Below, in pieces: positions 36,182 through 41,786 of a stretch of 64,000 nucleotides of DNA (position 1 is the first letter of the stretch; every line of letters starts with the position of its first letter). The notes under the pieces were generated by a model. That model was not told where the DNA came from and made no database searches. It saw only the letters and a list, made by a program, of their open reading frames with translations. This DNA is from an uncultured Bacilli bacterium (GTDB lineage: Bacteria > Bacillota_I > Bacilli_A > RF39 > UBA660): contig CALVJR010000001.1 of the NCBI GenBank assembly GCA_944332295.1, forward strand, positions 136,598-200,597. The letters are read 5' to 3'. A program made the position numbers and the translations under genes.

Positions 36182-36904
36182 ATGAAAATAGTTACTTGGA
36201 ACATTGGTGAAGATGAAAGAAATGAAAATGGTAAATTAAATATAAATTCTTATAATTATATAGTAGATTTTATTAAAAAAGAAAATATAGATGTTATTTG
36301 CTTACAAGAAGCTATTATAAAATCAGATTATTTACCAAGCATAGCAAAATATATAAATGATAAAACTGATTTAAAATATTCAGTTGAATATGAATTGTCT
36401 GATTCTCATATTAACATTGGATGTAAAATGGGGATTGTTATCTGTTCTAGATATGAAATAACTAATTATGAAACATTACTATTAGATAATCCTAACTTAA
36501 TTTATTCAGTGGATGAAAATACAACTTATTATTCACATGATAAAGGATTTATTATTTCGAATATTCAAGGAATAAATATTATTACAGGTCATTGCTTACC
36601 ATTTCATGTATTTAAAGAAAATCCATTAGATTATTTAAGTATATTTGAAAAAGCAGATGACAAATTCATAAATGCTTATGATTATAATGATAAATTAGTA
36701 TTATGTGGAGATTTTAATTATGATGATGTTAATACTATATTTCCAAAAATAATGACTCATTGTAAAGATTTAATAAATGAGTCAACAAGAAAAGATAAAC
36801 AATTAGATCATTTTATTATAAGTAATAAATTAAATTGTTCTTATAATAAAGTTGTTGATAATATATTTGATCATAAATTAGGAATTTTTGAAATTTATAA
36901 TTAA
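36182..36904 (+). CDS. Endonuclease/exonuclease/phosphatase (EEP) family protein
   Basis: VTWNI, CLQE, GDFN, LDHF, FDH. Confidence 0.88.
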   Translation: MKIVTWNIGEDERNENGKLNINSYNYIVDFIKKENIDVICLQEAIIKSDYLPSIAKYINDKTDLKYSVEYELSDSHINIGCKMGIVICSRYEITNYETLLLDNPNLIYSVDENTTYYSHDKGFIISNIQGINIITGHCLPFHVFKENPLDYLSIFEKADDKFINAYDYNDKLVLCGDFNYDDVNTIFPKIMTHCKDLINESTRKDKQLDHFIISNKLNCSYNKVVDNIFDHKLGIFEIYN

Positions 36905-36952
36905 ATTAGAAATATATATATATAAATTACACTTTTGAAAGTGAGTGATATT

Positions 36953-37345
36953 GTGAAAGTATTAAGTTTAACTGAACCATATGCAACATTAATAAAAAAT
37001 GGAAGTAAAACTATTGAAACTAGAAGTTGGAAAACAAATTATAGGGGTAAACTATATATTCATGCAAGTTCAACAAAAATTCCAAAAGAATATAAAAATA
37101 ATGAAGCATTAATGTCATTAGTTAATTTAAATGAATTAAACTATGGTAATATAATTTGTTCTTGTGAATTAGTAGATTGTATTGAAATGACAGATAAATT
37201 TATAGAGGATATAAAGAAAAATAAAAATGAGTATATAACAGGTGTTTATGCTATCGGAAGATATGCGTGGATATTAAAAGATATAAAAGTATTAGATAAA
37301 CCTATTAAAGCTAAAGGACATTTAGGTATTTGGAATTTTGAATAA
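36953..37345 (+). CDS. ASCH-domain protein
   Basis: LSLTEPYATLI..GSKTIETRSW..YRG.LYIHAS, KGHLGIW. Start is uncertain (GTG 36953). Confidence 0.88.
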   Translation: MKVLSLTEPYATLIKNGSKTIETRSWKTNYRGKLYIHASSTKIPKEYKNNEALMSLVNLNELNYGNIICSCELVDCIEMTDKFIEDIKKNKNEYITGVYAIGRYAWILKDIKVLDKPIKAKGHLGIWNFE

Positions 37346-37385
37346 TTTTTAAATACAATATTAAATTATTAGATAAATTTAGATA

Positions 37386-37453
37386 AAAATGACACTGTGA
37401 CACTAAAAATGAGTGTAGGGTACTCACAAACAATGTGTCACTGTGTCATTTTT
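37386..37453. repeat. Long inverted repeat with tandem TGACAC units (terminator or protein-binding site)
   Basis: AAAAATGACACTGTGACAC / GTGTCACTGTGTCATTTTT, 19-bp arms with one mismatch. Inner TGAGTG/TACTCA hairpin, then a T-tract. Confidence 0.7.
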
Positions 37454-37496
37454 TTTAAATAAATTAGTTGAATTGATAGAAAAAATTGGTGATTTT

Positions 37497-37505
37497 TGAT
37501 ATAAT
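37497..37505 (+). promoter_or_regulatory. Extended -10 promoter of the RT locus
   Basis: TGATATAAT (TGnTATAAT). Predicted transcription start near 37512. Confidence 0.6.
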
Positions 37506-37511
37506 ATTCTC

Positions 37512-38012
37512 GTACTTAGGAACAGATAATAGTTTTATTTGGTACATTCAATTCGGTGAAAGTCCGAGGAATCCTTATAATGGGAGTATTAGCATTGCTC
37601 ATAGCAATAGCTAGGTAAATGATATGGAGTCCTCGTGGTTCGCTTGCAGACAAGCTGCAGCTCACCTACGAGTACTTACCATACATGACGTAAATTGCCA
37701 AACGTATGGAGATTAATTAAGATTTCAGGTTGCTGCTTTTCCCCTTTGTTTATTAGTTAATATATAAAGGAGGAATGCCTATGAAAAAGAAAAAGAAACA
37801 AAAAGTTATTGTTATTACAACAATTCTTGCATTTATTTTTCCAATTATGGTGAAGGTTTTAAATTTAGACTCTGATCAAATGACAACTTGCATAGTGTTT
37901 TATGGATTAGTAGTCAATTTGTACTCAAATTTTAATTTTGGGGAAGCCCTTCTAGTGAAGCTGAGTATTATCACTTAATTAATCGTTGATGTATGTTTGG
38001 CGTTTTTACGTT
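37512..38012 (+). ncRNA. RT-associated structured RNA (retron msr/msd-like) with an embedded ORF
   Basis: GC-enriched hairpin domain at 37550-37685 and a long-range stem between 37688-37721 and 37974-38011, directly upstream of the RT SD. Confidence 0.65.
37781..37978 (+). CDS. Small basic 2-TM peptide, candidate toxin/effector
   Basis: AAGGAGG SD at 37767-37773, 7 nt before ATG 37781. MKKKKKQK followed by two hydrophobic segments, 65 aa. Confidence 0.65.
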   Translation: MKKKKKQKVIVITTILAFIFPIMVKVLNLDSDQMTTCIVFYGLVVNLYSNFNFGEALLVKLSIIT

Positions 38013-38025
38013 AAAGAGGTGAAAA

Positions 38026-39207
38026 ATGAAAATCAAAGTAATAAAGAATAGTGATTCTAAACTATATAATAGAGGAAGCAAAAAATATGTAGCAGATTTA
38101 TTATCAGATAAAAATAAAAATATAATTTTTACAAAGAATGATTTAAATAATATCATTTATAAATATGATAAGAAAGAAATTATATTTTATGAAAGTAAGA
38201 AAACTAAAAAAAGATATAAAAGAGAACCAAAAGATTATACATCTAAAAAATATAGAAAATTTACTGATGTTCCAGAACCTAGAAAGACTGCATTAAAAAA
38301 ATTAAATAGTTATTTATCTGAATTAAGTATACCTGATTATGTGTTTGCTAAAACTGATGGTGGTTATGTAAAAAATGCTAGACATCATAGAGGAAATACT
38401 AATTTTTTGTTAATAGATATAGCGAGTTTTTATCCAAATTGCAAATTTAAAGAAGTTAAACGTTTTTTTATGTCAGGTGGTGGATTTAAAATGAAAAATG
38501 ATCTTGCACAAAGAATGGCAGAATTAGTAACTGTACCAGAGAAGAGTAATCCAAAAATAAGAGTAATCCCACAAGGATTTCCAACTAGTACATTAATAAG
38601 TTTCTTTGCATATAGAAAAATGTTTGCAGAATTAAATAAGATTGCTTTAGAAAATGACTTGGTATTTAGTACCTATGTAGATGATGTAACTTTTTCTACT
38701 AATAATGAAAAATTTGATTTCAATTCGATTTTAGAATCTATAGATGGAGTATTAGAAAAATATGGGCATAAAAGAAAAAAAGAAAAGACACAAATTTGTT
38801 TATTAAAAGATAGTAAATGCCCGACAATAACTGGTATATGGATAAAAAGACATAAAGTAAGAGCTTCTTCAAAAATGTATAAAAAGTTGATTACTAATTA
38901 TAGATGGCTTATATCTAATCCTATTATTGATGGTACTAGTTATTTAAATGCTTGGAAACATTTTGTTGTTTTAGATGGATTACTAAACACAATTGATTAT
39001 ATCGAACCAGTTAATAAAATAAAAAGAGATTATATTAGAAATTATTTAAATGAAAATAGAGCAAACTTTATACAAGGATTATCTCCATATACGAAAAAAT
39101 TTAATAGTAATTATTGGAAATCTAAATTTTATAACGCCTATAAATGTAGTGATTTAGAAAAATTCTATTTATCTAATAAAGATAAGTTAAAGAAAAAAAG
39201 AATATAG
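38026..39207 (+). CDS. Retron-like reverse transcriptase
   Basis: NARHH (retron region X NAxxH), IDIASFYP, PQGFPTS, YVDD catalytic motif, ITG (VTG-like region Y). No maturase or endonuclease domain seen. Confidence 0.9.
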   Translation: MKIKVIKNSDSKLYNRGSKKYVADLLSDKNKNIIFTKNDLNNIIYKYDKKEIIFYESKKTKKRYKREPKDYTSKKYRKFTDVPEPRKTALKKLNSYLSELSIPDYVFAKTDGGYVKNARHHRGNTNFLLIDIASFYPNCKFKEVKRFFMSGGGFKMKNDLAQRMAELVTVPEKSNPKIRVIPQGFPTSTLISFFAYRKMFAELNKIALENDLVFSTYVDDVTFSTNNEKFDFNSILESIDGVLEKYGHKRKKEKTQICLLKDSKCPTITGIWIKRHKVRASSKMYKKLITNYRWLISNPIIDGTSYLNAWKHFVVLDGLLNTIDYIEPVNKIKRDYIRNYLNENRANFIQGLSPYTKKFNSNYWKSKFYNAYKCSDLEKFYLSNKDKLKKKRI

Positions 39208-39215
39208 TTATTTTT

Positions 39216-39454
39216 TCTAGATACCAAAATCAGATACTAAACGTTTAAAATAAAGTTATTTTTATAAACTTTACTAAATTATGATAAAAGAAAAAGCCTT
39301 ATTTTATAAGACTTTAACTAATTAATAAATTGTTACGAACTGATAATAATATTTCCCCCTGAAATTCCCCTCGAGAGAGGGGAATACTTTTTTTGTAAGG
39401 AATTATTACTAATTTAGATTTTTCTAGACACCATACTAGATACTAAATTATTTT
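39216..39454 (+). repeat. Composite att junction: right end of element 1 plus left end of element 2
   Basis: 39216-39357 resembles 41904-41990, and 39355-39454 resembles 28514-28615. Confidence 0.85.
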
Positions 39455-39955
39455 CAATATATTTATAAATATGTTGTATTACTATCTGAAAATAAAAAAG
39501 TTGATAGAGAAGTTTTAGAATTAAGTGCTTTATTACATGATATTGCTATGACTGATAGAAGCTTAGATAGAACTAATCATAATGAATATGGTTCAGTTAT
39601 TGCAGAACAATTACTACGAAAAAATAATTATCCAGAAGATAAAATACAACTAGTGAAAAAATGTATTTTAAATCATAGTAGTAAACGAGCGGATTTTAGA
39701 ACAACAGAAGAAGAAAGAATATTAGTAGATGCTGATGGTTTATCACATTTTGATTCAATTAACAATTTATATTCTTTAGCACATAATGTCATGGAACTTA
39801 ATGATAAAGATACAATAAAATTTATCCAAGACAAATTAACCAAAGATTATAATGAAATAAGTGATAATTTGAAATGTTTGATTCAAGAAAAATATGACAG
39901 TGTTATGAATATAAAAACAATAGATGAATTGCTAACTATAAGTAAAGAGAAATAA
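39455..39955 (+). pseudogene. 5'-truncated HD-domain protein
   Basis: The frame upstream of ATG 39548 reads QYIYKYVVLLSENKKVDREVLELSALLHDIA, so the HD motif precedes the first ATG and no start codon lies before it. Confidence 0.75.
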
Positions 39956-40772: not shown

Positions 40773-41786
40773 GTGAAGTATATGGATAATACCAAAAATT
40801 TAAGTTCTTTAAGATCTATGATGAATATATCAGAAATGGTTCCATATTTAAAGCAAAAAAATATAAAATTTAATTTAATTTCTGAAGATGATGCGGAAGC
40901 ATATTTAAAATATAATAATAATTATTATAATGTAACTGCATATAAACACAATTTCCCAAAATATCCATCTCCTGCTGGAAAATATGAAGGACTATATCAA
41001 GATTTAGATTTTGCATATTTAAAAGATATGGCAATTATTGATTATAGAATCAGATTACTATTATTTAAAATGATAATTGATATTGAACATTATTTAAAAA
41101 TAAAAATATTAAATACAATAGAAGAAATCGAAGATGAGGATGGATATAGAATAGTTAATTTGTATTTGGAAAAAGATTTCAATGATGAAAAGTTTCCTAA
41201 AAGAGTTCATAATAGTATTTTTAAAAAAGTAGGTAATGAATATTATCAAAAAATATTTTCTAAATATGATGTTGATAAAGATAAAAAGTTAGAAAATATA
41301 CCAATATGGGAATTCCTTGAAATTATTACATTTGGCGAATTGGTTAATTTCTATGATTTTTACACTAAGAAATATAATTTAGTGGATGAAAATAGAGATG
41401 TATATATATTAAGAGATATTGTGAAATTAAGAAATGCTGTTGCACATAATACATGCATATTAAGTGAATTAAATAAGAAAGATAATACTTATCCAGCATC
41501 ATATAAAATTGTACAATATTTAAAAGATTGTAATATAGGGAAAGCAACAAGAAATAATAAGCTTCGTAATTCAAGAATTAGACAAATTACATATACACTT
41601 TATATGTTTAATGAAATAGTAACAAGTGATGGTATAAAAGAAAATGTAAATAAAGAAATAAATAAATTATTTTTTGATAGAATAATTTTACATAAAGAAT
41701 ATTATAATAATAATGAACTATTAAAATCAATATATTCATATTTCAAAAATATAATTGAAAAAAATTATGTGAATGTTGATAAATAG
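40773..41786 (+). CDS. Abi family (AbiD/AbiF-like) HEPN protein
   Basis: NNYY....Y, D..LR......IE..LK, PIWEFLEIITFGEL, HEPN RNAVAH (RX4H). Start may be ATG 40782. Confidence 0.88.
   Translation: MKYMDNTKNLSSLRSMMNISEMVPYLKQKNIKFNLISEDDAEAYLKYNNNYYNVTAYKHNFPKYPSPAGKYEGLYQDLDFAYLKDMAIIDYRIRLLLFKMIIDIEHYLKIKILNTIEEIEDEDGYRIVNLYLEKDFNDEKFPKRVHNSIFKKVGNEYYQKIFSKYDVDKDKKLENIPIWEFLEIITFGELVNFYDFYTKKYNLVDENRDVYILRDIVKLRNAVAHNTCILSELNKKDNTYPASYKIVQYLKDCNIGKATRNNKLRNSRIRQITYTLYMFNEIVTSDGIKENVNKEINKLFFDRIILHKEYYNNNELLKSIYSYFKNIIEKNYVNVDK

Follow-up and report, generated by a model that had tools for sequence, protein, structure and literature searches.

A hairpin at positions 37735-37783 of a 64-kb stretch of DNA from an uncultured Bacilli bacterium (assembly GCA_944332295.1, contig CALVJR010000001.1, positions 136,598-200,597; the whole stretch is referred to as the window) lies in the leader of a gene for a retron-type reverse transcriptase (RT; 38026-39207). 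This hairpin hides the ribosome-binding site (RBS) of a small membrane-protein gene, which sits within the template RNA of a phage-defense RT system. Relatives conserve this fold as well as a competing one, suggesting that the hairpin belongs to an on/off switch of a toxin. Three strands are involved, all of them, like the other features described below, on the + strand unless stated otherwise. The anti-Shine-Dalgarno strand X (37735-37749; GCUUUUCCCCUUUGU) can pair with strand Y (37764-37778), which contains the Shine-Dalgarno (SD) sequence AAGGAGG (37767-37773), or with strand Z (37940-37947; GGGGAAGC, codons Gly-Glu-Ala), an SD-like decoy within the open reading frame (ORF) of the small protein (SP; 37781-37978). 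We consider the hairpin to be probably a translational lock in the hybrid RNA of a Type VI-like retron.

The letters from which the hairpin had been proposed were found in place: CCTTTGTTTATTA at 37743-37755, TAATATATAAAGG at 37758-37770, and GG at 37772-37773. Pairing of the SD with the upstream C-run was confirmed, but the proposed pairing of 13 nucleotides (nt) with 13 is impossible, as it would leave a loop of only 2 nt. In the predicted structure, the core consists of 37743-37749 paired with 37764-37770 and 37751-37754 paired with 37759-37762, with a loop at 37755-37758 and with U37750 and U37763 unpaired. Outside the core, CC 37741-37742 pair with GG 37772-37773 over the bulged A37771, and the base of the hairpin is formed by UU 37739-37740 with AA 37774-37775 and GC 37735-37736 with GC 37777-37778. 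The segment 37735-37783 folded at -14.2 kcal/mol compared to -5.86 ± 2.21 kcal/mol for 200 dinucleotide shuffles (z -3.77), none of which was as good. Folding of 37688-38012, which had been suggested as a check, gave the SD pairs probabilities (P) of 0.92-1.0, but the alternative fold had negligible weight in this single-sequence ensemble. The start codon was also paired: AUG 37781-37783 was bound to 37846-37848 with P of ~0.88, within a second helix between the start-codon region 37779-37784 and UUAUGG at 37845-37850 (P 0.56-0.90). The accessibility of the SD was 0.14, owing to the bulged A alone, against a median of 0.535 over 43 other SD-bearing ORFs of the window, three of which were equally low. 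On single-sequence grounds, the SD hairpin is thus unusual but not unique.

Relatives of the system were collected through the RT. Homologues fell into 89 clusters at E ≤ 1e-10; a search of 60 related genomes did not find the RT of the window. With a 25-RT alignment as the query, scans yielded 21 loci on genome contigs and 44 on metagenome contigs. Titled records were mostly metagenome-assembled genomes (MAGs) of uncultured gut Bacilli, Erysipelotrichaceae, or Clostridia. The 49 loci with an RT identity of at least 37% and with upstream DNA present were compared, and loci L041, L058, and L059, where the contig begins within the RT, as well as L017-L022 and L060-L066, with an identity of at most 34%, were excluded.

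The SD hairpin was kept among the relatives down to 37% RT identity. In folds of 32 sequences, each running from 100 nt upstream of the SP start to the beginning of the RT, the mean probability of being unpaired for the SD-core G residues was below 0.2 in 30 sequences and 0.24-0.25 in the other two, and the listed ATG was paired in 25. A covariance model of the module gave one match in each of 31 sources out of 31 and no further match over 232 kb. Bulges move the register of the hairpin between clades, and its SD core does not vary; the hairpin was assessed by register-independent tests (duplex permutation and flank pairing) in place of column counts. In 14 sequence types chosen beforehand, X bound its own Y at -13.97 kcal/mol, whereas permuted partners reached -10.73 ± 0.67 kcal/mol (0 of 20000 permutations). 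The four bases 3' of GGAGG formed 3.07 of 4 possible pairs with the bases 5' of the C-run versus 2.29 ± 0.32 after permutation (178 of 20000), and these flanking pairs varied by clade, from AA:UU to UA:UA, UG:CA, GAUG:CAUC, and AAUGG:CCAUU. An ordinary hairpin, arisen by chance or kept for stability in an AT-rich leader and without a regulatory role, would agree with the equally deep burial of the SD in three other ORFs of the window; the folding z value, the conservation to 37% RT identity, and the single match of the covariance model per locus make such an origin highly improbable.

The second pairing open to X had been proposed as TTCCCC (37739-37744) with GGGGAA (37940-37945). Both motifs are located there, and the pairing proved to be real and longer than expected, extending to 8 bp (37735-37738 and 37741-37744 with 37940-37947; GCUU..CCCC with GGGGAAGC). 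There are 11 copies of GGGGAA on the + strand of the window, and the chance of one falling within the 198-nt ORF is ~3%. The X:Z helix is regarded as real because it is conserved and covaries in relatives, its weight in the single-sequence ensemble being negligible. When an 18-nt X was scanned over the whole RNA of ~520 nt, the SD site and Z were both among the top three partners in all 31 non-redundant sequences. X bound its own Z at -13.66 kcal/mol compared to -8.99 ± 0.78 kcal/mol for permuted partners (0 of 20000), and two control segments of the ORF gave no signal. In alignment A2, where Z occupies columns ~522-558, the eight X:Z columns were 84.4% paired versus 77.8 ± 0.9% in shuffles (0 of 500), with 43-70% in slid controls. 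Cells with changes on both sides numbered 36 versus 9.4 ± 3.2, and the covariation score was 0.394 versus 0.278 (0 of 500 shuffles each). The partners differ between clades, X and Z being GGUUAUCCC and GGGAUAAUC in L012, AUGACAUCCC and GGGAUGUCAU in L015, UGCCAUUCC and GGAAUGGCA in L016, and UGUCACCUU and AAGGUGGCA in L046. A close relative, L032 (87% RT identity; L032:363-416 and the ORF), has X changed from CCCC to CCUC together with Z changed from GGGG to GAGG, at the cost of a Gly to Glu replacement in the SP (FGEAL to FEEAL). This paired change suggests that RNA pairing outweighed protein conservation at Z.

Z could have been kept for a reason other than pairing with X, namely as an SD-like sequence for ribosome pausing or standby binding or as coding sequence for Gly-Glu, the complementarity to X being a by-product. 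In favor of this, Z resembles Y in each clade, and the Gly-Glu of FGEAL, a motif conserved in the clade of the window, is encoded by GGGGAA. Across clades, however, the protein motif is not kept (F51 is the sole invariant residue of the SP) while complementarity to X is, and several types use X bases for Z that do not pair with Y, such as L015, in which nine of the 14 X:Z pairs are shared. The restoration of pairing in L032 at the expense of a Gly also argues against a coding role, and we regard this explanation as improbable. Pairing of Z with X remains the preferred reading, and it excludes the SD hairpin: at least six X bases are common to X:Y and X:Z in each of the 14 sequence types, so the two helices cannot coexist. 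In the canonical Type VI locus L019, the SD also lies in a long hairpin, but the anti-SD strand there has its best alternative partners away from the 3' end of the ORF; as a single sequence, this carries little weight.

Both helices are set in a larger RNA scaffold. The region upstream of the RT (37500-38030, 531 nt) folded far better than its shuffles (z -5.1). In the minimum free energy (MFE) fold, its 5' domain forms four stem-loops (37512-37545, 37552-37568, 37572-37585, and 37589-37614; 37512..37614 in total) and is msr-like; the corresponding helices 1-7 were 74-95% paired in alignment A2 (48% for helix 7, which is a single pair), and most of their pairs change on both sides. They are followed by the long stem-loop 5 (SL5; 37619-37686), in which the RNAalifold consensus contains an invariant GUG...CUAC core and many compensatory pairs (helices 8-10, 80-95% paired). 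By analogy with the 63-86-nt stem-loop of Retron-Vpa2, SL5 is a candidate msd, that is, the template of reverse transcription. Directly after it, at the position of retron a2, starts the 5' arm of a long-range stem (37687-37721; MFE fold and RNAalifold), whose 3' arm is at 37974-38012 in the position of retron a1 (MFE fold, RNAalifold, and covariation). Of the 32 pairs of this stem (helices 11-12, 86-99% paired), 19 change on both sides, and the stem encloses the whole SP ORF. Inside it are the 5-bp helix H2 (UUCAG 37724-37728 with CUGAG 37961-37965; helix 13, 82% paired, four of five pairs changing on both sides) and a small hairpin, CUUC-UAGU-GAAG (37949-37960), its pairing being read off the sequence. 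Of 42 pairs predicted independently by RNAalifold, 28 showed compensatory changes. The full scaffold of stem-loops, long hairpin, long-range stem, H2, and X:Z (101 pairs) was 86.8% paired versus 78.1% when shuffled, and 71 of its pairs change on both sides versus 44.2 ± 3.1 (0 of 500 shuffles; slid controls 35-44%). The original prediction had set the SD hairpin against the long-range stem; its competitor turned out to be the separate helix X:Z, and the stem is compatible with both folds. In the modeled structure, X:Z would stack on H2 and the long-range stem.

The anatomy of this RNA, its conservation and covariation, and the mutual exclusivity of its two folds were established in the analysis. 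For 37512-38016, the unconstrained MFE, with the SD hairpin, was -137.6 kcal/mol, the fold with X:Z forced reached -127.4 kcal/mol, and the ensemble difference was +9.6 kcal/mol. In the forced fold, Z takes the C-run, the GGAGG core is left without G-C partners and retains weak A-U and G-U pairs, and the AUG helix stays. The following mechanism is proposed. One transcript of ~500 nt would unite retron-type stem-loops, the long template-like hairpin, and the SP mRNA enclosed by the long-range stem, the SP presumably being a toxic abortive-infection effector. In the resting RNA, X would be paired with the SD and the AUG held in the second helix; with both paired, the SP would not be made. Re-pairing of X with the decoy Z near the end of the ORF would then free the GGAGG core. 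As both pairings are kept by the family, the RNA appears to be built to toggle. The off state would be the kinetic default since X and Y are transcribed ~170 nt before Z, and it is also the thermodynamic one by ~10 kcal/mol, so an outside input would have to drive the on state. A ribosome reading through Z would melt X:Z, and translation would thus tend to reset the lock. The likeliest input would be the activity of the adjacent RT during phage infection, acting through multicopy single-stranded DNA (msDNA) or through the RNA cleavage that accompanies its synthesis. The direction from off to on is inferred, and the role of the RT or its complementary DNA (cDNA) as the trigger is drawn from analogy with Vpa2.

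The same pair of helices could reflect sequential folding without a regulated switch: X:Y would act as a co-transcriptional lock on the nascent RNA, the mature RT-bound RNA would adopt the X:Z scaffold, and the SP would be made constitutively and neutralized after translation, as the preprint text describes for Retron-Sen3 (Garcia-Rodriguez et al., 10.64898/2026.04.27.721009). The predicted stacking of X:Z on H2 and the long-range stem, an a1/a2-like region, fits this order of events, as does the clearer covariation of X:Z compared to X:Y. However, the operon has no helix-turn-helix (HTH) antitoxin gene and no other conserved neighbor, refolding would need help because X:Y is the more stable helix by ~10 kcal/mol, and sequestration of the SD is kept in 30 of 32 relatives. 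We therefore consider sequential folding unlikely.

Activation by processing, following the logic of hok-like type I toxin-antitoxin systems, would also employ both helices. A host or phage nuclease would trim or cut the long-range stem and shift X:Y to X:Z, while the RT would have a separate task and its cDNA would not touch the switch. The layout, with a small hydrophobic ORF, a hidden SD, pairing of the whole mRNA, and two alternative boxes, fits well, and the complementarity of the switch to the candidate msDNA was not robust across clades. On the other hand, the SP ORF occurs only beside this RT family (49 of 49 loci) and is embedded in a retron-type RNA, and SP translation in Vpa2 requires the RT active site and msDNA according to the preprint text (Zhang et al., 10.1101/2025.10.22.683967). 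Processing as the trigger is accordingly quite unlikely in our estimation, and an RT-driven translational lock is preferred.

Several results weigh against that preference. In the nearest-neighbor model, the on state lies ~9.6-10 kcal/mol above the off state, and the RNA, left to itself, would practically never switch; no input to the switch, whether protein or DNA, was identified. The lineage has no HTH protein of the kind that represses reverse transcription in Vpa2. The SP gave no match to Pfam and none to PADLOC models, including SP_VI, at E ≤ 0.01, the clusters cl2075, cl2760, cl3272, and cl3897 not having been searched directly. Column covariation of the SD hairpin was weak, with 72.1% versus 69.9% paired in the MAFFT alignment A3 (33 of 500 shuffles) and 72.7% versus 70.0% after realignment to the covariance model (A4; 9 of 500), and without an excess of changes on both sides in either alignment. 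The sequences are related to each other, and the shuffle tests overstate significance for this reason. Z resembles Y by construction, and sequence analysis therefore cannot fully separate pairing of Z with X from mimicry of the SD for another reason. No exact direct repeat of at least 7 nt linking the riboregulator or ORF to the 5' domain or msd was conserved at one place across clades. The candidate msDNA, taken as the reverse complement of SL5 with its flanks, had its best sites on the X side in 11 and on the Z side in 12 of the 14 sequence types, with shuffled probes being nearly as good (mean z -0.9 on the X side and -1.0 on the Z side) and the complementarity being absent in 4-5 of the 14 types.

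Against the X side, the candidate msDNA stood out only in the window (-18.8 kcal/mol, 4 of 100 shuffled probes), L032, and L036 (0 of 100 each). Complementarity within the clade of the window provides a lead: by invading 37720-37743, a cDNA of 37651-37671 could strip X from the SD. The translational switch originally proposed, which cDNA synthesis or RNase H cleavage was to flip, is thus upheld as regards its two partly exclusive folds, which are both present and conserved to 37% RT identity, with covariation in the alternative helix, but a Vpa2-like signature of such a trigger, common to the clades, was sought and not found.

The ORF enclosed by the long-range stem encodes a protein of 65 amino acids (aa) with a Lys-rich N-terminus and hydrophobic segments, a presumed toxic effector. 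It starts at ATG 37781, 7 nt past AAGGAGG, and its stop codon TAA (37976-37978) lies within the 3' arm of the long-range stem. The start given by the ORF tool, ATG 37775, was rejected as being too near the SD. A hydrophobic ORF of 58-71 aa ends 26-75 nt ahead of the RT in all 49 related loci. The protein is poorly conserved, its identity to distant clades being 17-24%, and nucleotides in the 3' part of the ORF are far more conserved than the protein sequence. Toxicity of the SP is presumed from Vpa2 and Sen3. In eight loci (L046, L047, L048, L050, L052, L054, L055, and L057), a strong SD, AGGAGG, is located 20 nt upstream of the listed ATG and 8 nt upstream of an in-frame GUG; the SP of this clade probably starts at the GUG, four codons upstream of the listed ATG.

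The RT itself has 393 aa with YVDD at residues 217-220. It matched Pfam RVT_1 (3.3e-15), and its top PADLOC model was RT_VI (4.1e-51, 171.9 bits), the next model scoring 95.5 bits; the relatives L015 and L046 reached 191.8 and 161.1 bits with RT_VI. The AlphaFold2 model had a mean predicted local distance difference test score of 86.7. In a Foldseek search of PDB, ranks 1-18 among the matches listed were all solved retron RTs (Eco2, Eco8, type I-A, Eco7, Ec86, Ec78, and Ec83; E 5e-13 to 3e-8), and Abi-P2, group II intron RTs, and defense-associated RTs ranked below them. Y217, V218, D219, and D220 are invariant among 25 RTs of the family. Mestre et al. reportedly named NAxxH and VTG as retron-specific RT motifs in 2020. 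The RT of the window has NARHH at 117-121 and ITG at 268-270; N117, H121, T269, and G270 are invariant in the same 25 members, and A118 and I268 are nearly so.

Membership in the Type VI clade refers here to ranking by hidden Markov models, not to a phylogeny that includes reference RTs. Two of the more distant relatives, L019:2321-3765 (Companilactobacillus nuruki) and L022:2366-3768 (Rikenella microfusus), are canonical Type VI loci with the gene order SP-HTH-RT. They outscored the RT of the window on RT_VI (266 and 236 bits, respectively), both have HTH_VI matches, and the SP of L022 matches SP_VI. Their RTs have 288-309 aa, the RT of the window being ~90-100 aa longer. An HTH gene was sought in several places. 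The 26-75 nt between the SP stop and the RT start in 50 of 50 sequences leave no space for one; the N- and C-terminal extensions of the RT matched no HTH family; the interval from the RT stop to the terminator fully contains no ORF of at least 20 aa, the nearest being a 20-aa ORF on the minus strand that overlaps the RT stop; and no neighboring gene besides the SP is common across clades. In the whole-genome search, the PADLOC HTH_VI model proved to be generic (it matched 13 of 14 control genomes), and its nearest matches in the genome are ~4 kb off. Judged by sequence, the family is of Type VI in the ranking of RT models, the position of the SP, and the RNA architecture, whose layout is that of a Type VI hybrid RNA, and is not in its lack of an HTH gene, an SP_VI match, and loop repeats. 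Since more distant relatives are canonical SP-HTH-RT loci, the family is a divergent, HTH-less, long-RT branch beside Type VI.

A candidate promoter was located at 37477-37505, with -35 TAGAAA, a 17-nt spacer, and a TG-extended -10 TATAAT at 37500-37505. Among 15 consensus matches it ranked first (10 of 12 positions, with TG), the total number of matches in the region being no higher than in shuffles. The predicted -10 box lies downstream of the points where RNA contigs of two runs start (37444 and 37451), which conflicts with this candidate. The operon would be closed by a hairpin resembling an intrinsic terminator (39364-39385) with a T-run (39364..39394 in total), the sole terminator-like site in 37350-39600. 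An Rfam scan of 36900-39400 at E ≤ 10 gave four matches, all far below the gathering scores and none meaningful. The stretch was present in six metatranscriptome runs, and contigs of all four runs compared cover the hybrid-RNA region: 37444-38010 in X15, 37451-37947 in X16, 37532-37960 in X17, and 37524-37691 plus 37699-38002 in X18. The runs were selected using the stretch itself as a query and no DNA run stood alongside; their contigs are strandless and cannot show true ends. In the 3' arm of the long-range stem, two contigs from two studies stop at 38002 and 38010, within 8 nt of each other, which hints weakly that the hybrid RNA is a discrete molecule. RNA contigs left the greater part of the RT ORF uncovered (none in X16-X18 and one partial in X15); such a coverage gap proves nothing.

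Further features were observed around the operon. Upstream of it are genes for an endonuclease/exonuclease/phosphatase-family protein (36182-36904, +) and an ASCH-domain protein (36935-37345, +), and the interval from the ASCH gene to the retron promoter holds a GC-poor hairpin region flanked by AAAAATGA...TCATTTTTTTT (37405-37452). Downstream, the gene at 39548-39955 (+) encodes a small protein that is HD-like and matches PADLOC Cas3-HD weakly (1.6e-4). None of these three flanking genes is kept beside the RT in other clades. An Abi_2/AbiD-family abortive-infection gene (Pfam 6.3e-24; PADLOC AbiD 1.7e-18) is located 1.5 kb past the retron, at 40773-41786 (+), and the retron therefore lies in a small defense island. 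Direct repeats found in clade A only, GAGTATTA (37584-37591 and 37963-37970) and TATTAGCATT (A2 columns ~100 and ~396), connect the region of the third and fourth stem-loops with the ORF and with the strand after H2, and are not retained in distant clades. The own SD of the RT (AAAGAGGUG, within 38013-38025) starts directly after the 3' arm of the long-range stem.

The template-like hairpin adjoins the 5' arm of the long-range stem as msd adjoins a2, an arrangement suggesting that the retron RNA is circularly permuted and carries the toxin mRNA in the loop from a2 to a1; such a layout agrees with a remark in the text of the Vpa2 preprint (10.1101/2025.10.22.683967). If the long-range stem is indeed the a2/a1 duplex, the SD of the RT would contain or adjoin the priming G, and priming would be coupled to RT translation. 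We tentatively put forward a minimal two-part retron, consisting of one RNA and one RT without an accessory protein, as a possible though doubtful form of the whole system: msr-msd would be permuted, the long-range stem would be a2/a1 with the priming G beyond a1 near the SD of the RT, the SP mRNA would occupy the joining loop, the anti-SD strand would toggle between the SD and the intragenic decoy, and reverse transcription would be the sole input. The text of the Vpa2 preprint leaves open which RNA elements silence the toxin mRNA and how it is released, and the family described here offers a concrete answer in its anti-SD strand, SD, and intra-ORF decoy. As the lineage lacks the HTH protein, the RT and the RNA could be studied alone. 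Hybrid-RNA retrons are extended by this family to small-genome gut Bacilli, and if the switch does respond to the DNA product, it would be a natural DNA-triggered riboregulator.

The literature found on the subject comprised two Type VI preprints. According to the text of the first, Retron-Vpa2 has a hybrid RNA of ~470 nt that holds msr-msd and the translationally repressed mRNA of a toxic SP, with the RBS and AUG in stem-loops and with inverted repeats by which the RNA folds its 3' end onto the first arm (Zhang et al., 10.1101/2025.10.22.683967). The msd stem-loop has 63-86 nt, conserved 7-nt direct repeats are proposed in the msd loop and in the loop of what the authors call a riboregulator, SP translation was shown by experiment to need the RT active site and msDNA, and the HTH protein represses reverse transcription (10.1101/2025.10.22.683967). 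As far as that text describes Vpa2, the window family shares with it the single structured transcript with retron stem-loops, a long template hairpin, and a hydrophobic SP ORF, the downstream RT gene, the placement of RBS and start codon in stem-loops, and the 3' end folded back through inverted repeats. Unlike Vpa2, it has no HTH gene, a longer RT, no SP_VI match, and no conserved 7-nt loop repeats, and it possesses a covarying alternative partner of the anti-SD strand inside the ORF, for which no counterpart was found in the Vpa2 description. The hosts are gut Bacilli-type MAGs and Vibrio, respectively.

In Retron-Sen3, as the text of the second preprint reports, long-range IR1-IR2 pairing flanks the SP, which is made constitutively and neutralized post-translationally by an HTH antitoxin; ~78% of the Type VI entries have a Cro/C1-type HTH gene that lies upstream of the RT or overlaps it, and ~22% lack one (Garcia-Rodriguez et al., 10.64898/2026.04.27.721009). 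The window family resembles Sen3 and the other cl2075 Type VI retrons covered there in the long-range inverted repeat around the SP gene and in two alternative conformations that touch the RBS of the SP. In Sen3, however, the RBS is paired in both conformations, whereas in the window family the SD core becomes free in one fold, and the locus has no antitoxin gene. A mutually exclusive arrangement of anti-SD strand, SD, and decoy was not found described in the text of either preprint, though their supplementary figures may show related structures.

Type I toxin mRNAs of the hok/sok kind encode a small hydrophobic toxin, and their translatability is set by sequestration of the SD, pairing of the whole mRNA, and alternative complementary boxes. 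The SP mRNA is similarly hydrophobic in its product and kept inert by a hidden SD, whole-mRNA pairing, and alternative boxes, but no antisense RNA is known for it, no search aimed at one having been made, it is fused to a retron template RNA beside an RT, and its presumed trigger is reverse transcription rather than 3' trimming. In toehold-type riboregulators and attenuator leaders, an anti-SD strand likewise chooses between the SD and another partner. The RNA described here differs from these systems in that the other partner, a decoy ~170 nt downstream, belongs to the very ORF under regulation, and in that the trans input proposed for it is DNA made by the product of the neighboring gene.

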